Below, in pieces: positions 1,117-44,441 of a stretch of DNA of 64,000 bases. The notes beneath the pieces were generated by a model. It did not search any database. It was not told where the DNA came from and saw only the letters and a program-made list of their open reading frames with translations. This DNA is from an uncultured Spirochaetota bacterium (lineage in GTDB: Bacteria; Spirochaetota; Spirochaetia; SZUA-6; Fen-1364): the NCBI GenBank assembly GCA_963734545.1, contig CAVTHO010000005.1, positions 288,001 through 352,000 on the forward strand. The letters are read 5' to 3'. Within the stretch, counting starts at the first letter, position 1; every line of letters starts with the position of its first letter. The translations under genes and the position numbers were made by a program.

Positions 1117-2913
1117 TCACGCCCCGCCGGCGCTTTTCCGCTCGATCCTCGCCCAGGTATCCTTCAGGGAGACAGTGCGGTTGAATACCGGCTTCCCTGG
1201 GCTCGAGTCCGGGTCTACGTAGAAATACCCCAGCCTCTCGAATTGAAACCGGTCCCCCGGCACGGCAGTTGCGAGCCCGGGTTCCACGCGCGCGTCCGGC
1301 ACGACCTCGAGTGAGCCGGGATTGATAGTGTCCTTCCAGTCAACCCCCTCCGGCACTTCCTGCGGATATTCGGCGGAAAACAGGTGATCGTACAGGCGCG
1401 CCTCCGCCGCAAGCGCGTGCCGGGCCGATACCCAGTGGATCGTGGCTTTCACCTTGCGGTTGTCCGGCGCATTGCCTCCGCGCGTCAACGGATCGTACGT
1501 GGCGAGTATTTCCTGCACCGCGCCGGTGGAAGGGTCCTTCCTGACCCCGGTGCACGTGATGATGTACGCGTAGCGCAGCCGCACCTGCTGGCCCGGGGAG
1601 AGCCGGTAGTACTTTGGCGGCGGGACCTCGCGAAAATCGTCCTGTTCGATGTAGAGAACGCCGGAGAAGGGGACTTTTCGAGTCCCCGCCGCCGGATCCT
1701 CGGGATTGTTGACCGCTTCCATCTCCTCGACACTGCCCTCGGGCCAATTCTCGATGATGAGCTTCACGGGATGCAGGACGGCCATTGCCCTGCGGCAGCG
1801 CCGGTTGAGATCCTCCCGCAGGCAATGCTCGAGCAATTCTATCTCGGCGGTGCTGTTCGTCTTGGCCATGCCGACCCGGGATACGAAGTCCCGAATGGCC
1901 TCGGGCGTATAGCCCCTCCTGCGGAGCCCCCGGAGGGTCGGCATGCGGGGATCATCCCACCCGCGCACACGGCCCTCCTTCACCAGCTCCAGGAGCCACC
2001 GCTTGCTCAGGACGGTATGGGTGATGTTCAGTCGGGCGAACTCGATCTGCCGGCTGTGGAAGATCCCGATATTCTCCAGGAACCAGTCGTACAGCGGCCT
2101 GTGGATCTCGTACTCCTGGCTGCAGAGGGAGTGGGTGACCCCTTCAATGGAATCGGAGAGGGGATGCTGATAGTCGTACATGGGGTAGATGCACCACGTA
2201 TCACCGGTGCGATGGTGCGTGGCATGGCGGATGCGGTACATGACCGGGTCGCGCATGTGGAGATTGGGATGCGCCATGTCGATCTTGGCCCGCAGGGTGC
2301 GCGCGCTGTCGGCAAACTCTCCTCTCCGCATGCGGCGGAACAGGTCCAGGTTCTCGTCAACGGCCCGGTCACGGTACGGGCTGTTCCTCCCCGGCGGCGT
2401 GACGGTGACAGGGCCCTTGTCCGCCACGTCCGTTCCACGAAACTCGCGGATTTCCTGCTCGCTCAGGTCGCAGACGTAGGCCTTGCCCGCGGTGATGAGC
2501 TTTTCGGCCCACACGTAGAGCTGCTCGAAATAGTCGGAGGCGAAAAACTCACGATCCCCCCAGTCAAAGCCGAGCCACCTCGTGTCGGCCTTGATGGCGT
2601 CCACGTACTCCTGCTCTTCCTTTATGGGGTTGGTATCGTCGAACCTGAAATTGCACGCGCCGTTGAACTCCGCCGCGATCCCGAAGTCCGTGCAGATTGC
2701 CTTGGCATGTCCGATGTGCAGGTATCCGTTGGGCTCGGGCGGCCAGCGCGTCCGCACGTACGAGAAGCGCCCGGTCTCCAGGTCTTTCGCAACGGCCTCG
2801 CGTATGAAGTCGGACGGGGGCGCGCCGAGGCCGGTATCCCCCGCGCCTCCCTCGGCCCCTGATGCAGTGGAAGCCTTTCGAGGGGTCGGGACGCGAGACG
2901 TCGGGTCTGTCAC
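1117..2913 (-). CDS. glnS: Glutaminyl-tRNA synthetase
   Basis: [14 protein letters not shown] (HIGH), [13 protein letters not shown]; GTG at 2913 has an AAGGAG SD. Confidence 0.97.
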
Positions 2914-37353: not shown

Positions 37354-38628
37354 CTAGGGACGGACCCTCTTCCTGTCACGCGGGAAGAGCGTGGCCTCCT
37401 TGACGCTTGCCAGGCCCAGGATCTTCTGCGTCAGCCGCTCCATTCCGATGGCAAAGCCCCCATGCGGCGGACAACCGTACTTGAATATGGAGAGGTAGTC
37501 GGAGAGTCCGACCGGATCCAGCCCGAACGCTTTTGCGCTTTCCACGAGCATCTCGTATTGGTTGATCCGCATGCCCCCGGACGTGACCTCCAGGCCGCGA
37601 AAGAGCAGGTCGAATGCGCGGGTCTTGTTGTTCTCCGCCGGGTATGTATAGAAAGGCCGGGACTTGCGCGGATAGGCGTACACAAAGGCCGCCTCGATTC
37701 CTTTTTCTTTCAGGGCCCATTCGCAGAGAGAGCGTTCGGCCTCTGGCGTTATCTCATAGACCTTTTTTCCCATCTCCCGGGAGACGATCTCACGAGCCTC
37801 GTCATGGGAGACACGCGGGATTGCGGCGCACAGCGCGGGATCCGGAACCGCGGCATGCCATGCATCCAGGTCCCGCTGGTTTGATTCCCTGATGCCGCGG
37901 AAAATGGCGGCAAGGATCCTGGTTTCAAGGTCCATGAGCTCCTGCTCGCTCTCGATGAAAGCCATTTCCACGTCCAGGGAAACGAACTCGTTGATGTGCC
38001 GCGGTGTGTCGTGCTTTTCCGCCCTGTAGGCAGGACCGATTTCGAATACGCGCTCCATGCCCGAAGCGATCATGACCTGCTTGTACAGCTGCGGCGACTG
38101 CGTCAGGTAGACCTTCGTATCGAAGTATTCCACTGAAAACAGGCCCGTGCCCCCTTCGGTACCCGTTCCTATCAGCTTGGAGGTCTTTATCTCGCTGAAC
38201 CCCTCGCTGCGCAGGTGCGCGGCGAAGCAGCGCAGCAGGGTCGACTGGATCCGGAAGATCGAAAGGATGGCCGGGTTGCGCACCGAGATCATCCTGTTGT
38301 CCAGAATGGCCTCGAGGTTCGTCTTGCCGGGGTCCTGGTTCACGGGAAAGGGAAGGTCGGCGGCGGCAGCGGAGATGACCTCCAGTGTCCTCACCCGAAC
38401 CTCGAAGCCACCGGGGGCTTTCTCATTGGCCGCGGCGCTGCCCTCGACACGGATGACCGACTCGAGGGTCACTTCGGGCCGGGCGTCGAACACCAGTTGT
38501 GCGCTCCCGCTTCGATCACGCAGCAGCACGAACGATACCCCGCCCAGGTCCCTGATCCTGTGCACCCACCCGTACAGGGTGACTTCCGCGCCGACCTTTG
38601 AGGCGAGCTCAGAGACAAGCGTCCGCAT
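37354..38628 (-). CDS. aspS: Non-discriminating aspartyl-tRNA synthetase (short archaeal/Deinococcus-Thermus type)
   Basis: LTQSPQLYKQ, RAEKHDTPRH, PPHGGFAIGMER, FPRD; no GAD insert; follows gatCAB. Confidence 0.9.
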   Translation of the reverse strand: MRTLVSELASKVGAEVTLYGWVHRIRDLGGVSFVLLRDRSGSAQLVFDARPEVTLESVIRVEGSAAANEKAPGGFEVRVRTLEVISAAAADLPFPVNQDPGKTNLEAILDNRMISVRNPAILSIFRIQSTLLRCFAAHLRSEGFSEIKTSKLIGTGTEGGTGLFSVEYFDTKVYLTQSPQLYKQVMIASGMERVFEIGPAYRAEKHDTPRHINEFVSLDVEMAFIESEQELMDLETRILAAIFRGIRESNQRDLDAWHAAVPDPALCAAIPRVSHDEAREIVSREMGKKVYEITPEAERSLCEWALKEKGIEAAFVYAYPRKSRPFYTYPAENNKTRAFDLLFRGLEVTSGGMRINQYEMLVESAKAFGLDPVGLSDYLSIFKYGCPPHGGFAIGMERLTQKILGLASVKEATLFPRDRKRVRP

Positions 38629-41022
38629 TGCCCACCTCCATTCCTGCAAGCAGCTCTTCCTCGGTCTCGGAAAATGCAGAGCACATCACGAGCCGGGTCC
38701 AGGCGGACTCGGTCGTGAGCGAGCCCATCGGGATTGCCCCCTCGCGCCACAACTCGTGGGAGGTCACATAGCGGGAGAAATCGACGATTCCTTCCTGCTG
38801 GGACGTGCAGAAAAAGTGAACCCCCTTCTCCCGGGCGGCGAGGAGCGCCTTGCGCAGCGAATAGGGGGAATCGCGAAGATTGGCGGTCCCTGTGTCATAG
38901 AGCTCCAGCACGAAGTTCTTCACTCCCCGGTCCATGAGCTCGATGAGATGGTCGCCCCGCATTCCCGGGTAGACGCGCAGCATCAACGTGGAGTTGATGG
39001 CCGTCTCGAAACGGGCCTTCAGCTTCTCCCTGTCACCGGAGAGGGGCAGATCGTCGAACAGCGGTGTGCCGGCGTGGCAGGGCTTGGTCATGTTCCAATT
39101 CCTGAATCCGTCGGCCGCCATGCGCTCGAACTTGAGATTGACCGGGGAAAGAACCTTTCCGCCGAAAACCACGTACACGCCCGGCTCCCTCTCCGCGGCG
39201 GTGCGAATAGCCATGCGCAGCGTCGCAATGGCGTCGCTGCCCGGCTTCCCGCCGGCTGGAGGGAGGCGGCAAGAACGATCGGGACCAGCGGGCGGGGGAA
39301 GAGCCAGAACACGAGTGATGCGGTGTATGCCAGGGTGTCGGTTCCATGGGTCACTACGATTCCCGATGCCCTTCCCCCGCGGAGGCGCTCGTCGATTCCC
39401 GCGGCCAGGCGGGCCCAGTCTTCCGGCGTGATCTCCTCGCTCAGGATCCTTCCGACCTCTCCCTCCTCGAAAGCGATCGTGCGGCTGAATCCGCCCTCCG
39501 CCTCCACGAGGCGCATGATCTCGGAAGGATCGCCCGCCACCACGTCGCCCTGCTCGGTTTCCCTGGCCGCGATGGCGCCGCCGAGAGAGAGGATCTGGAT
39601 GACGGAAACAGCGAGTTTCTGCTTCACGAGCGCCTGGACAAGGGCCGGATCGGCCCTGCCGGAAGTCTCGCGCATCATCTCACCGATCAGGTACGTCGTG
39701 GGCCGATGATCGCCCGCCTTGATGGCGGCAACGGCCGCCGTGTTGGCCTGCAGGACCTTCTCGAGGTATGCGCCCAGCTCCGCCGGGTCAGTGATCTGCT
39801 CCCAGCCTTTTTCCTTGATGATCGTGCGAGGGTCCTTGTTCTCCGCAAAGACCATCTCCAGAACGGACTTGGCAATCTTTCCGTGTATGCGCTTTGCCGC
39901 GAGGAGAGAGAGCAGCTCGGCGAACCTGCCCGGCGTCAGCGGGCTCGCCGCCAGCGTCACGGAAGCGCGATTGAGATGCTTCTTCACGTCGGAGGCCAGC
40001 CAGAGAGCGGCGCTCTTCGCGTCCGCGCCGAGACGCACGGTTTCCTCGAAATAGTCGGCTGTGGACTTCTCGTCGCAAAGGAAGTCCGCCTGCTCTTCGC
40101 TCAGGCCGAAGGAATCGATGAACCTGCGCGTGCGGGCCTCGGGAAGCTCCACCAGGGATTCCTCGACGTGACGGAGGAACTCCTGGTCCGGCGCAAAGGG
40201 AGGCAGGTCAGGCTCGGGAAAATAGCGGTAGTCCGAAGAGCTCTCCTTGGTGCGCATGCTCTCGGTGACGTCCCGGTTCTCGTTCCACAGCCGCGTTTCG
40301 GTGGTCACGCTGCCGCCCCGTTCGAGGATCTCGGTCTGGCGTTCGATCTCGTACGAGATGGCCTTGCGCACGAATTTGAACGAGTTGAGGTTCTTGACCT
40401 CGACCTTGCTCCCCAGGCCGCGGCCCTCGAGGTTCACGGAGACATTGGCGTCACAGCGCAGCGAGCCTTCCTCCATGTTTCCGTCGCACACCCCCAGGTA
40501 CCGCACCAGCCGGCGCAGGTGCTGAAGAAATACCTCTGCCTCTTCGCCGACCTCCAGGTCCGGCTGCGTGACGATTTCAAGGAGCGGCGTGCCCGCCCTG
40601 TTGAAATCGAGCAGCGTGATCTCACCTGCGTGGATCATCTTCCCCGCGTCCTCCTCGAGATGGACCTCGCGGATGCGGACGCGCTTCTTCCGCTTGCGCA
40701 GCTCGATCTCCACCCAGCCGTCGGTGCCCAGAGGCGAGCGGAATTGCGAGATCTGGTAGTTCTTGGGAAGATCGGGATAGAAGTAGTTCTTTCGCTCGAA
40801 CATGGTGGACGCACTGAGCGTGCAGTTCAGCGCCCGCGCCACGAGATACCCCATGCCGATGGCGTTCGCGTTCAGCGCGGGGAGCACCCCGGGGTAGCCC
40901 AGGCAGACGGGGCACACATTGCTGTTGGGCTCGTCACCGAAAGCCGCCTTGCACCCGCAGAAGACCTTGGTGCGTGTCAGAAGCTGCGTATGGACCTCGA
41001 GGCCGAGGAACGATGCGTACAC
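38609..41022 (-). CDS. gatB: GatB fused to a C-terminal asparaginase/GatD-like domain; frameshift near 39246
   Basis: GLEVHTQL, RKNYFYPDLPK, HLEEDAGK, DYRYFPEPD, then in frame SLGGAIA...HGTDT; second frame continues KPGSDA... Confidence 0.9.
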
Positions 41023-41024
41023 CG

Positions 41025-42408
41025 CTACCTCCAGTCCGCCGGGAACCCAGGCGCATCTGGCGAGGGGAACACTTTTTCGAGTTTGCGGCACGCGGCGAAC
41101 AGGCGGCCTTCGGCAAAGGCAGGCGCGAGGAACTGCATGCCGATGGGGAGCCCGTTTTCGAGGCCCGCGGGAAATGAAAGCGCGGGAAGCCCGGCAAGAT
41201 TCGCCGCGCAGGTGAATATGTCGGCGAGCTTCTGCGAGAACGGGTCGGCCTCGGCGCTCCCGCGCGTGAAGGGGGGCACCGGATAGACGGGCATCAACAC
41301 GAGGTCGACACCGGCGAATGCCTTCTCGAAGTCGCCCCTGATAGCGGTGCGGATCTTCTGGGCGCGCAGGTAGTATTCCTCCTGGAAGCCCGAACGCAGG
41401 ACATAGGTGCCGAGCAGAATGCGGAGCTTCACCTCGTCCCCGAAGCCCTCTGTCCGTGAAGCGATGCTCATGGCCTCGGGGTTGTCGGCGCGCGCCGTGC
41501 GGTGGCCGTACCGCACGCCGTCGAACCGCGCCAGGTTGGCGCTCGCCTCGGCCGTAGCGATGACGTAGTAGGAGGAAACCACGTGATCCAGAGTCGGGAA
41601 CGACACTTCTTCGAGGTCGTGCCCGAGGTCCCTGAGCATACCTCGGGTACGCGCAAAGGTCTTTTTCACGTCAGGGTGCAGGGGGACGTCGGCTACTTCA
41701 CGCGGCACACCGATACGCAGGCGGCCGGTCTTCTCTGCGGCCGGTTGCCACGGCAGGGAAGAATGATCCATGGGATCCTGTCCGCGCATGATCTCAAAGA
41801 CCGCCTCCGTCATGTCGACGGTCTTGGCCATCACGCCGATCACCTCGAGGGAGGACGCGTAGGCCACCAGACCGAACCGCGAGACAGATCCCCAGGTCGG
41901 TTTCAGCCCGTAGACGCCGCAGAAGGAGGCTGGCTGGCGTACCGATCCACCGGTATCGCTCCCGAGGCCGAATGCCACCATGCCGCCGGCAACCGCTGCC
42001 GCAGTGCCTCCACTGGACCCGCCGGGAACGCGCGTGGGGTCCCAGGGATTCCTTGTTTCCATCAAAGCCGAATTCTCGGTCGAGGAGCCCATGCCGAACT
42101 CGTCCAGGTTTGTCTTGCCCGCTACGACGGCACCTGCCTGCTGGAGCCGCCGTACCGCCGTGGCGGTGTAGGGGGAGACGAAATCTTTGAGCATGCGGGA
42201 AGCCGCACGTGAGGCGGAAGGAGCGGACGGCAATGTTGTCCTTTACGGCGAATGGAACGCCCGCGAGGGGTCCATTCGGCGACGTTTCGACCGCGCCGAG
42301 CGCGGGGTCGATCTGAAGAAAACAGCCGAGGTCTCTCTGGCGGGCGTTGGCAAAGGCCATCCACCTTTCCCGGGGCCCTTCGGATGTCGCTGTGCCATGC
42401 CAGTCCAT
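41025..42408 (-). CDS. gatA: Amidotransferase subunit A; frameshift near 42201
   Basis: AVKDNI, GKTNLDEFGMG, PGGSSGG, GSDTGGSVRQPA. Confidence 0.92.
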
Positions 42409-42448
42409 TGCACCTCCGCCCGTCTGAAGGGCGATTTCTCGAGTTTTC

Positions 42449-42727
42449 CTACAGTACGTTCGGGATGACGATGAAGCGCTCTTCGCGTTCGGGAGCGTTC
42501 CCGAGGAGCGTATCCGAGTTCGAGGGATCGATGCCCACATCCTGACGGAGCCTGTTTTCCCTCAGCAGGGCGTGCGTGGTAGGCGCCAGGCCCGCCACAT
42601 CGATCTCCTTCATGTGTGAGAAGTACGCCAGCATCTGCTCCACGGCCACGCGCAGCCGCTCCCGCTCCTCCTCGGAAAGGTTCAGGCGGGCCATGCGGGC
42701 TGTCTCGGTGAGCTCACCAGCGTCCAT
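42449..42727 (-). CDS. gatC: Amidotransferase subunit C
   Basis: TARMARLNL, PTTH, LRQD, NAP...FIVIPNVL. Confidence 0.9.
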   Translation of the reverse strand: MDAGELTETARMARLNLSEEERERLRVAVEQMLAYFSHMKEIDVAGLAPTTHALLRENRLRQDVGIDPSNSDTLLGNAPEREERFIVIPNVL

Positions 42728-43019
42728 GTCGGTAGTTAACCCGGCCCCCCCTGCCGTGTCAAGGAGAGCGGCGGGCTCTGGTGACCAAAAGCAGGGCAGC
42801 GGAGGGAGCCGGACCATCTCCTGAGCCAATTTGCTTGACGAATGCCGCACGGAGTCCGTACATTTGAGTTTGGAGATTTGCGCTTCCGAACAGTGAAAAT
42901 GTCGAATCGAGACCTCCCGAGCCGCGCCGGAGATACTCTTTCACGTCCGAATTTGAAAATTGCGTTTGACGGCACGCGAGGGCATGTTACAATACGGTGC
43001 AAAATAGCGAGGAACGTGA

Positions 43020-44441
43020 GTGGTTAAGAAGGACTTTCCAAAAATACATTTTTACGATCAGGATCTTGTATCCCTCTACGATGAAACATGGAACCTCATC
43101 AAGGACTTTTGGAAAAAGGGAACATCGGCCAACGGATTCCACAGCAGGTTCTTCAGCCACCCTGACAGCACGCGCATCAATCAGTTCGACGCGTGTTTTT
43201 CCTCGTTTTTCCTCGTCTATTCGAACCGCATCTATCCCGTGATGTCCGCGCTCGACAATTTCTACTCCAAGCAGGAGGAATCAGGGGCAATCCGCGGCGA
43301 GTACCGCGCCTCGGACGGCAAACCCATTCATCCCCGGGAGAATCCCAAGGGTGTTCTCCCCCCGCTCTTTGCATGGGCGGAGTTCAACATCTACCACAAG
43401 CTCGGCGTCAAAAAGCGTATCCGTGAAGTCCTGCCGGTGCTGGAGAAGTACTTCCGGTGGATCGAGACGACCTTCAAGGCTGAAAACGGGCTCTACTCGG
43501 TGCCGCTTGCGGCAACCATGATGGAAAACTCGCCTCGTGAAGACATGCGGTACCCCATCGACTTCAATTCGCAGATGGCGCTCGCCGCGTTCTACATGTC
43601 GGAGCTGGCCGACATCATCAACGACAAGGAAACCAACTACGCCTACAAGAAGGCGTACTTCTCCCTGAAAACCAAGATCAATTCCCTCATGTGGGACGAA
43701 AGAGACGCGTTCTACTACGACCTGGACGCGTCGGAGAAGCGCCTCAAGGTGAAGACCATCGCCTCGTTCTGGCCCCTCATCGCTGAGATCCCCAACGAAG
43801 CCAGGGGGGAATGGTTGATCGAGCACCTGGTGGACCCGCATGAGTTCGGCATTGAGAACCCCTTCCCCACGCTGGCAGTCAAGGACAAGCGCTTCGATGC
43901 CCAGGGCTCCGGCTATCGAGGCTCGGTGTACCCCCCGTTCAATTACATGGTGATCAAGGGATTGGAAAAGTACAAGCGCCACGACCTCGCCCGCGAGTTC
44001 GCCATCCGGCATCTCTATCACGTGCTGGACGGGTTGTATACGAGCAACGGCAAGAAGGGCTCCCTGTACGAGGCGTATGCGCCTCACACGGAAGGCCCGG
44101 CAAAATGGCCGGGCAAGAAAGGCTTTCCGCGGACAATGTTCGTGCCGTATACGGCGCTCACCACCGTCTCGCTGATGCTGGAAAACATCATTGGCTTGAA
44201 CATCTCCCTGCCTCGAAAAACGGTCGATTGGACCATACCGACCCTTGAGGCCATGGGCATCGGGGACCTCGCCCTGAAGCGAAACCTTATCTCTATCCTC
44301 AGTGCAAAGAGCAGTCGGGGCTGGGAGGTCCACCTGGAAAGCGAAAAACTCTACTACCTGACCATCGACCTGTTCGGCGCACGGAGCAAGACCCTGCCCA
44401 TCCCCTCGGGAAAATGCTCCATCCTGGTGGACAAGCTGTAG
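43020..44441 (+). CDS. GH63/MGH1-like (alpha/alpha)6 glycoside hydrolase
   Basis: PPLFAWAE, MENSPR, MWDERDAFYYD, YRGSVYPPFNY. Confidence 0.8.
   Translation: MVKKDFPKIHFYDQDLVSLYDETWNLIKDFWKKGTSANGFHSRFFSHPDSTRINQFDACFSSFFLVYSNRIYPVMSALDNFYSKQEESGAIRGEYRASDGKPIHPRENPKGVLPPLFAWAEFNIYHKLGVKKRIREVLPVLEKYFRWIETTFKAENGLYSVPLAATMMENSPREDMRYPIDFNSQMALAAFYMSELADIINDKETNYAYKKAYFSLKTKINSLMWDERDAFYYDLDASEKRLKVKTIASFWPLIAEIPNEARGEWLIEHLVDPHEFGIENPFPTLAVKDKRFDAQGSGYRGSVYPPFNYMVIKGLEKYKRHDLAREFAIRHLYHVLDGLYTSNGKKGSLYEAYAPHTEGPAKWPGKKGFPRTMFVPYTALTTVSLMLENIIGLNISLPRKTVDWTIPTLEAMGIGDLALKRNLISILSAKSSRGWEVHLESEKLYYLTIDLFGARSKTLPIPSGKCSILVDKL

Follow-up and report, generated by a model that had tools for sequence, protein, structure and literature searches.

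A 64,000-nucleotide stretch of DNA from an uncultured Spirochaetota bacterium (NCBI GenBank assembly GCA_963734545.1, contig CAVTHO010000005.1, positions 288,001 to 352,000 of the forward strand; hereafter "the window", with positions counted from its first letter) carries a gene, here called gatB', in which GatB, a subunit of the GatCAB transamidation enzyme, is fused at its C-terminus to a domain of the asparaginase fold. This fusion is real and widespread in the Spirochaetota. The added domain has Ala in place of the nucleophile Thr, and we favor, with a probability of roughly 0.55, the reading that it is a non-catalytic module for binding or scaffolding. The gene and its parts are placed as follows:

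38609..41022, minus strand: gatB::asparaginase-like fusion gene, some 804 codons when translated across the break; one base missing; four Pfam domains over two open reading frames (ORFs)
39616..41022, minus strand: GatB core (cradle, helical domain, YqeY tail), canonical by Pfam, by NF004012 on the homologous protein P0002 and by residues invariant in type 1 loci (see below)
38609..39615, minus strand: asparaginase-like domain, both lobes, Ala at the nucleophile position, stop codon included; placed by alignment with 1WLS and by an AlphaFold model of the domain from the related locus L051
39241..39250, minus strand: frame-break site, one base missing within GCGGGAAGCC (minus strand); placed by three-frame translation and contig comparison

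The first ORF (39088..41091, minus strand, listed at 667 amino acids [aa]) holds the Pfam domains GatB_N (377.8 bits) and GatB_Yqey (140.9 bits) and, beginning only four residues past the latter, the first 117 of the 193 positions of Asparaginase (78.9 bits); the remainder of that domain, followed by Asparaginase_C (43.1 bits), lies in a second ORF of a different frame (38609..39214, minus strand). The likely start codon of gatB' is a GTG at 41022, two bases past the gatA stop. In a three-frame translation, PIVLAASLQPAG and GKPGSDAIATLRMAIR occupy consecutive frames, with the changeover inside GCGGGAAGCC, and P0002 (804 aa, 96% identical over the queried part) runs continuously across this junction as SLQPAGKPGSDAIATL. 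A preliminary description of this DNA, made from the sequence alone, had proposed a GatB running in frame into an asparaginase domain that then slips by one base; the Pfam domains and the translation bear this out, and every motif that it quoted (ILSLGGAIA, SEEITPEDW, VTHGTDTLAYTAS, GSDA, VYVVFGG, YPGM and GTAN) is present.

The same description had called for a search for GatB homologues of about 800 aa with an Asparaginase domain, and such proteins are readily found. Comparison of the asparaginase-like part with 5.8 billion proteins gave 221 matches among 5718 candidates; all 120 of the matches listed carry the GatB YqeY and asparaginase Pfam domains, 98 of them are 740–830 aa long, and the few with a source name are labeled GatB from members of the Spirochaetia. 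Of 401 genomes sampled from the phylum, 17 gave a match at E <= 1e-20, and 13 of these matches are fusions: that of the window's own genome and 12 from the same class, distributed over our families f2 (8 of 50 genomes), f9 (2 of 4) and f11 (2 of 2). The other four are stand-alone asparaginases of 27–31% identity, all in family f19, and at the same threshold families f20 (0/75) and f25 (0/38) gave no match. A pattern scan of one genome per species returned at least 600 pattern matches and at least 575 confirmed relatives, and the locus comparisons that follow rest on the best 80 of these. By their record titles these 80 loci belong to the Spirochaetota (Treponema, Gracilinema caldarium, Alkalispirochaeta, Spirochaetaceae and others), the exceptions being stand-alone asparaginases of Acetomicrobium and Thermococcus and one contig (L126) of an "Alphaproteobacteria" metagenome-assembled genome with the same operon. 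This contig, from a long-read assembly, is probably mis-binned; it bears a spirochaete-type operon, an aspartyl-tRNA synthetase (AspRS) 82% identical to that of the window over the aligned part, and a split fusion gene.

Two kinds of locus make up most of this set. Type 1 (26 loci in addition to the window) has the order gatC-gatA-gatB'-aspS with an MGH1-like glycoside hydrolase gene divergent upstream, and both gatA and gatC are kept in 26/26. Type 2 (49 loci, mostly Treponema-like: L042–L045, L048–L050 and L059–L125) has the glycoside hydrolase as a neighbor, then ppx and ppk, and is without gatC, gatA and aspS beside the fusion.

The residues of the asparaginase-like domain carry the argument for a loss of catalysis. 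Its best solved sequence match is the Pyrococcus horikoshii asparaginase 1WLS (E 1.5e-33), with the archaeal GatD 1ZQ1 at E 1.4e-21. In the 1WLS alignment, Ala stands opposite Thr11, so that the Thr-to-Ala change originally read from the GGT motif holds, and Asp stands opposite Tyr21; the Ser, HGTDT and Lys positions align, and the Gly-rich loop EGYGVGG of 1WLS is replaced by an invariant ELYDTGTA. Residues were counted in the 98 full-length homologues (740–830 aa). The nucleophile position is Ala in 92 (Ser in three; Thr, Arg and Val in one each), and the position of the loop Tyr is Asp in 54, Glu in 40 and something else in four. Every position of HGTDT is kept in 98/98, Ser-Glu-Glu in 98, 98 and 96, respectively, and the Lys position is occupied by Lys in 79 and by Arg in 19. 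Three invariant motifs, ELYDTGTA, CTSQQEG and DGFRNWN, are peculiar to the fused family. With both the nucleophile Thr and the loop Tyr lost, the domain is therefore not expected to function as an asparaginase or glutaminase in the known manner, nor as a second source of ammonia.

In spite of these losses, the fold appears to be complete. For the domain of L051, which shares 82% identity with that of P0002, AlphaFold predicts the full two-lobe asparaginase fold with a predicted local distance difference test score (pLDDT) of 90.4 and a predicted template modeling score (pTM) of 0.91. Foldseek and VIA-align place Thermococcales asparaginases first (5OT0_A of T. kodakarensis, Z 33.2, root-mean-square deviation [rmsd] 2.4 over 309 residues) and GatD close behind (Z 31.1 and 30.7). 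As to whether GatD or an archaeal type I asparaginase was the source of the domain, the sequence and structure scores lie within a few units of each other and do not discriminate. The structural matches include solved Thr-to-Ala mutants which, by their entry titles, have Asn bound (7C8X and 5DNC), so that a domain without the Thr could still bind substrate. Further, the fused domain keeps the positions equivalent to Ser58/Gln59 and Asp90 of E. coli asparaginase II (AnsB), which we take to be contacts to the alpha-amino and alpha-carboxylate groups of the substrate.

The absence of the Thr appears to be as old as the fused family. In a maximum-likelihood tree of the domain (IQ-TREE quick search, 66 rows, rooted on two stand-alone asparaginases over a long branch), type 2 forms a single clade (Shimodaira–Hasegawa-like approximate likelihood ratio support 84) nested within a paraphyletic type 1. 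Ala was found at the nucleophile position in 23/23 residues read from type 1 (24 full-length loci, one with a gap), and none of the 23 type 1 rows in the tree departs from this; type 2 has Ala in 33, Thr in 7, Ser in 7, and Gly and Val in one each. Because Thr and Ser are confined to derived subclades of type 2, Ala is the ancestral state of the fused family. Additionally, a profile search of 1.84 billion representative sequences (8794 matches at E <= 1e-3, 118 at E <= 1e-30) has the fused family filling the top of the ranking down to about 193 bits, and below it mostly stand-alone proteins, about 320–390 aa long and scoring no more than 178 bits. Those of the stand-alone proteins P0156–P0199 with their N-terminus present all have Thr in the GGT motif, mostly as TGGT; fusion and loss of Thr therefore mark the same boundary. 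The ratio of nonsynonymous to synonymous substitution rates (dN/dS; Nei–Gojobori, three intact type 1 genes) is 0.13–0.21 for the domain and 0.10–0.16 for the GatB core, rough values given a dS near 1, and suggests that purifying selection on the domain is almost as strong as on the core.

A third group extends the loss of catalytic residues. Group 3 comprises 14 proteins of about 800 aa (P0141, P0142, P0150, P0153, P0154 and P0270–P0278) with canonical GatB residues; the sole source name among them is "Candidatus Wallbacteria bacterium", given for the partial member P0142. In their asparaginase-like domain the nucleophile is Ala in 14/14, the second catalytic Thr is replaced by Leu in 14/14, and the Lys is kept in 1/14, and yet S528, E529, D562, N629, E707, D710, T713, S741 and Q742 are retained. 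The conserved function therefore needs none of the three classic catalytic residues. A metagenome scan aimed at this group with GatB-core patterns gave ordinary GatB at 78/80 loci; the only fusions were L132 and L135, both of type 1.

These observations bear directly on the possibility that the domain acts as an amidohydrolase by some non-canonical mechanism, in which, for instance, water could be activated via the Thr-Asp-Lys triad or a nucleophile could be supplied by the DTGT loop of the partner subunit, and which would furnish a second, Asn- or Gln-derived source of ammonia in a true GatCAB/GatDE hybrid. The complete, confidently modeled fold is consistent with such an activity, as are the unbroken conservation of HGTDT, the Lys in 79 of 98 close homologues and the new invariant Thr-rich loop ELYDTGTA in place of the Gly-rich one, and there is a precedent in GatD, which is homologous to asparaginases and works for GatE, a paralogue of GatB (accessible text of PMC2330236). 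However, nucleophile and loop Tyr are gone throughout type 1 with Ala ancestral, the 19 Lys-to-Arg replacements, a fifth of the homologues, are hard to square with catalysis, and group 3 keeps the remaining residues without the second Thr and mostly without the Lys. GatA and GatC are retained in every type 1 locus. The domain also falls well below the curated cut-offs for such enzymes (asnASE_I TIGR00519, 120.3 bits versus 260.5; gatD_arch TIGR02153, 111.6 versus 324; NF003217, 111.3 versus 310), with the GatD model matching only at about its positions 52–220, and it is attached to the YqeY tail, at a large sequence distance from the cradle in which ammonia is used. We therefore regard an active amidohydrolase as very unlikely. 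The preliminary description had weighed a hybrid GatCAB/GatDE against a dead domain and preferred the latter; the sub-threshold scores and the attachment to the YqeY tail instead of the catalytic cradle speak against the hybrid, and the preference is supported by the residue counts in the full-length homologues and in type 1, the ancestral Ala, group 3 and the retention of GatA and GatC.

The GatB part, by its conserved residues, appears to be an ordinary and catalytically complete GatB. P0002 scores above both GatB equivalog cut-offs (NF004012, 608.6 bits versus 338; TIGR00133, 548.1 bits versus 314.8), and H11, four Cys, H121, E123–E124, E149, D191 and E208 (P0002 numbering) are invariant in 24/24 full-length type 1 loci. 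H11, E123/E124 and E149, which are present in the window as well, match by motif position the metal-site residues of GatE; in the cradle of Methanothermobacter thermautotrophicus GatE these are His15, Glu157 and Glu184 (PMC2330236, in its accessible part). In a model of the full-length protein (pLDDT 80.7, pTM 0.54), the last YqeY helix (459–470) and the first strand of the added domain (474–480) are separated by a linker of 3–4 residues, and the tail and the domain would thus be joined almost rigidly.

In type 2, it is this tail and domain that persist. The GatB of type 2 is remodeled (H11R 49/49, H121R 49/49, E149R 47/49, D191N 49/49, E208K 49/49), an ordinary GatB is found elsewhere in 3/4 type 2 genomes tested (all but 16 kb of the fourth being covered), and in two of them a further archaeal-type aspS-like match is located some 0.7 kb away from this GatB. 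Type 2 thus has the appearance of a "retired" GatB paralogue. Within the domain, D562Y and K631H co-occur in one and the same set of eight type 2 proteins, as would be expected of two residues that interact.

The short linker and the history of type 2 could also be taken to indicate that the domain handles tRNA or aminoacyl-tRNA, either by widening the tRNA-binding surface of YqeY or by holding or shielding the acylated 3' end between AspRS, GatB and EF-Tu. Only 3–4 residues separate it from the tRNA-binding YqeY domain, and type 2 keeps both well conserved, as though they were the functional unit, although the metal site is replaced and gatA, gatC and aspS are gone. In asparaginases, however, the conserved pocket residues accommodate an alpha-amino acid whose carboxylate is free, and an aminoacyl ester offers no such group. 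To our knowledge, moreover, no asparaginase-fold protein binds RNA, and a tRNA-handling role seems to us improbable.

The genes around gatB' place the fusion in a transamidation operon:

41025..42400, minus strand: gatA (amidase subunit), frame-broken near 42201, upper end approximate; Pfam Amidase, 405.7 bits
42449..42727, minus strand: gatC, start approximate; Pfam GatC, 56.6 bits at residues 58–128 of a 133-aa ORF
37354..38628, minus strand: aspS, an archaeal-type non-discriminating AspRS by NF003483 and TIGR00458; Pfam tRNA-synt_2 and OB fold
43020..44441, plus strand: MGH1-like glycoside hydrolase, divergent neighbor; homologues match Pfam MGH1-like_GH

Directly upstream of gatB', then, are gatC and gatA, and downstream is the archaeal-type aspS, which probably starts at an ATG about 20 nucleotides ahead of the gatB' stop. 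A non-discriminating aspS at this position had been proposed, and the scores of the gene agree with it (508.3 bits for the NCBIfam model of aspartate--tRNA(Asn) ligase, NF003483, with its cut-off at 353; 402.8 bits for TIGR00458, cut-off 368.4). The accompanying claim that intact gatA and gatC precede the fusion stands for gatC but not for gatA, which is split over two frames near 42201. In the spacer between gatC and gatA (42434–42436) the window is four bases shorter than L132, a related metagenome contig described below, and other related contigs differ there by one or three bases. The glycoside hydrolase is adjacent in about 21 of 26 type 1 and about 40 of 49 type 2 loci, most of the others being without upstream DNA; it is a stable synteny anchor (L046, L047, L051–L125) with no obvious functional link.

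The physiological setting of this operon is one in which decoding is already provided for. The genome encodes AsnRS (478 bits, above cut-off; C3:371707–372978), GlnRS (675 bits; within the window at about 1150–2757, minus strand), a bacterial-type AspRS (599 bits; C6:223727–225476) and an AsnB-like gene (430.8 bits; C8:110457–111740), where C3, C6 and C8 are contigs of the same assembly. Of five other fusion-bearing genomes tested, AsnRS is above cut-off in all five and GlnRS in four. With AsnRS and GlnRS present, GatCAB is therefore not needed for decoding. A PF02934 search of the whole assembly (89% complete) returned the fused gene as the only GatB/GatE-type gene, and no GatE. The tRNA-Asn(GTT) found by ARAGORN on contig 4 begins with a U1-A72 pair and tRNA-Asp with G1-C72 (pairs read by eye); U1-A72 of tRNAAsn is the pair recognized by bacterial GatCAB, as stated in the accessible parts of PMC2330236 and PMC4206432. 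Thermus thermophilus and Deinococcus radiodurans use an extra archaeal-type AspRS together with GatCAB to make asparagine on tRNAAsn despite having AsnRS and GlnRS (PMC4206432, in part). With AsnRS, GlnRS and the bacterial AspRS all encoded, and with U1-A72 in tRNAAsn, the operon resembles a tRNA-dependent asparagine route of the Thermus/Deinococcus type, and, given the AsnB-like gene, this route may not be the only source of Asn.

The frame breaks in gatB' and gatA require separate consideration. In gatA, the Pfam Amidase match begins at profile position 67, and the N-terminal piece (PFAVKDNIAV / GPLAGVPFAVKDNIAV) is read in a different frame, the changeover being near 42201; this break consists of one extra base and is thus opposite in sign to that of gatB'. 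The preliminary description had advised confirming the gatB' indel in reads; here, contigs of four wetland-metagenome runs (X1–X4), which represent related populations (90–99% identity; the best run shares 0.44 of sampled words with the window), were compared over 38400–42900. All three contigs that bridge the gatB' break have one extra base, X2 at 39247 and X3 and X4 at 39250; the X1 contig stops at 39250 and does not bridge it. Both contigs over 42202 (X2 and X4) are one base shorter there than the window. L132, a 132-kb metagenome contig of 90.6% DNA identity to the window over 7.1 kb (glycoside hydrolase 98% and AspRS 95% identical in protein), carries an intact fusion gene, with one additional C at 39250 and one A fewer at 42201. 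The L051 protein aligns to frame -2 over 41025–39247 and to frame -1 over 39250–38612, and beyond the break the reading frame continues, without interruption and conserved, as far as the usual stop codon (213 residues aligned with L051 at 81.7% identity). Because near-identical contigs and the 96%-identical 804-aa protein are intact, the one-base break in gatB' is most likely an assembly error and not part of the organism's biology.

It might instead be supposed that the break is genuine in this organism and that the asparaginase-like domain and gatA are decaying as pseudogenes. The break does stand in the deposited sequence, decoding does not need GatCAB in a genome with AsnRS and GlnRS, and the best of the runs shares no more than 0.44 of the sampled words. 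Against this, both breaks are single-base differences from near-identical intact sequences, and the frame downstream of each is open and conserved to the normal stop. In the same assembly (10 contigs, 5.14 Mb), the bacterial aspS (C6:225252–225256), an amidase gene (C8:842884–842897) and a short asparaginase gene (L002:1368–1892, at about 244 kb of C5) are likewise split, a pattern that fits frequent single-base indel errors; split copies of the fusion also occur in two close relatives on long contigs (L053 and L126). We consider true decay to be a long shot. The short split asparaginase on C5, about 170 aa and N-lobe only, has ITGGTF and HGTDT.

Two further explanations of the breaks were set aside. 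Both breaks (39241–39250 and 42196–42205) fall in the same 10-mer, GCGGGAAGCC, on opposite strands; as a systematic error motif, however, this 10-mer shows no enrichment in a crude test (frame-switch signature in 4/85 genome copies versus 4.0% of 5000 random sites), and its presence at both breaks is treated as coincidence. Programmed frameshifting was dropped because the junction in the relatives is single-frame with one more base and because the gatA break is unrelated and of opposite sign.

If the added domain is a non-catalytic module, the following scheme would best account for its conservation. The non-discriminating archaeal-type AspRS would charge tRNAAsn with Asp, and GatCAB would phosphorylate and amidate the resulting Asp-tRNAAsn with ammonia from GatA. 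The asparaginase-like domain, having lost its nucleophile Thr (to Ala) and loop Tyr before the fused family diversified, would serve as a pseudoenzyme module for dimerization, for the binding of a free amino acid (Asn and Asp being the best candidates), or for both. Through its rigid link to the YqeY tail, it might then tune the handling of tRNAAsn or the two-fold assembly of a transamidosome with the dimeric AspRS. An amino-acid pocket and a dimer are suggested because the residues that hold the substrate backbone (Ser-Glu and Asp-Thr, as assigned from E. coli AnsB) are kept, and retention of the dimer in particular because the loops that contribute to the pocket of the neighboring subunit are kept. 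A role for the dimer is suggested because the GatD homodimer bridging two GatE offers a precedent (PMC2330236, in part). A dimerizing module that binds Asn or Asp could match the two-fold symmetry of AspRS, or could gate the indirect route by the pool of free Asn; both an oligomerization scaffold and an Asn/Asp sensor are plausible roles. The architecture, its conservation, the missing catalytic residues and the genomic setting are observed, and ligand binding, dimerization and a regulatory effect are inferred.

The sensor version can be put more specifically, though it must be regarded as tentative and, on balance, unlikely. Here the domain would form a dimer whose pocket closes on free Asn (or Asp), moving the YqeY tail and switching the capture of tRNAAsn by GatCAB, and type 2 would be an amino-acid-responsive tRNA-binding protein. 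Cells owning both routes would then run the costly tRNA-dependent one only when free Asn is scarce. Type 2 would have kept tail and sensor while the metal site was rebuilt with arginines and gatA, gatC and aspS were lost, for a function unrelated to amidation.

Several points weigh against a non-catalytic module as the explanation of this gene. Neither type 1 nor type 2 shows any change in the Thr-Asp pair of the second triad, and the Lys is mostly kept, a pattern that would fit residual or altered chemistry as well. Many of the kept residues belong to asparaginase motifs found throughout the fold and may be conserved for structure alone, and the Ser-Glu and Asp contacts to the substrate backbone are assigned by analogy with E. 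coli AnsB. The pTM of 0.54 leaves the placement of the domain relative to the GatB body undefined, and, since the frame-restoring contigs represent related populations, some room is left for a real, strain-specific frameshift.

The potential significance of the fusion follows from the enzyme that bears it. GatCAB belongs to the core of translation and has been studied extensively, and in the open literature no comparable accessory domain was found described for it; nor was any paper on a GatB–asparaginase fusion found in the open full-text literature, a search whose coverage stops short of subscription journals and supplements. For the GatB of Brachyspira, the accessible part of PMC3726837 mentions only a 1-aa indel, and databases name the fused proteins only "GatB" or "asparaginase domain-containing protein". 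A pseudo-asparaginase on the tRNA-binding tail would offer a handle on the regulation or assembly of tRNA-dependent Asn synthesis in bacteria that also have the direct route, and on the way in which a fold that once served catalysis is put to new use in a pseudoenzyme. Together with type 1, the "retired" form (type 2) and the doubly dead group 3 make up a natural series from which the residues that matter for function may be read. The single-base indels that split genes in this assembly also call for caution in annotation.

Among known systems, the ordinary bacterial GatB is the most direct point of comparison. The full GatB core and the order gatC-gatA-gatB are the same; the ordinary form ends after YqeY, at about 475–500 aa, whereas the fused form adds an asparaginase-fold domain of 335 residues. 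The type I L-asparaginases of the Thermococcales (1WLS, 4Q0M and 5OT0) share the two-lobe fold (Z 32–33, rmsd 2.4–2.6 over about 310 residues) but are free-standing and have Thr11, Tyr21 and EGYGVGG where the fused domain has Ala, Asp and ELYDTGTA. In T. thermophilus and D. radiodurans, GatB is not known to carry such a fusion. Their asparagine route otherwise has the same inventory of AsnRS, GlnRS, bacterial AspRS, archaeal-type non-discriminating AspRS and GatCAB (accessible text of PMC4206432), with the difference that the genome studied here also has an AsnB-like gene. Archaeal GatD (1ZQ1 and 2D6F; Z 30.7–31.1, rmsd 2.6 over 306–307 residues) is likewise an asparaginase fold in the service of a kinase/amidase of the GatB family, and is described in the accessible text of PMC2330236 as a homodimer that holds two GatE and carries a Thr nucleophile and a Thr-Lys-Asp triad. 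GatD differs, however, in being a separate subunit with an extra N-terminal domain, whose Thr nucleophile makes ammonia, whereas the domain described here is a C-terminal fusion without the Thr, beside GatA and GatC, in a genome without GatE. The fusion is thus a variant of the known GatCAB system and not a new kind of system.

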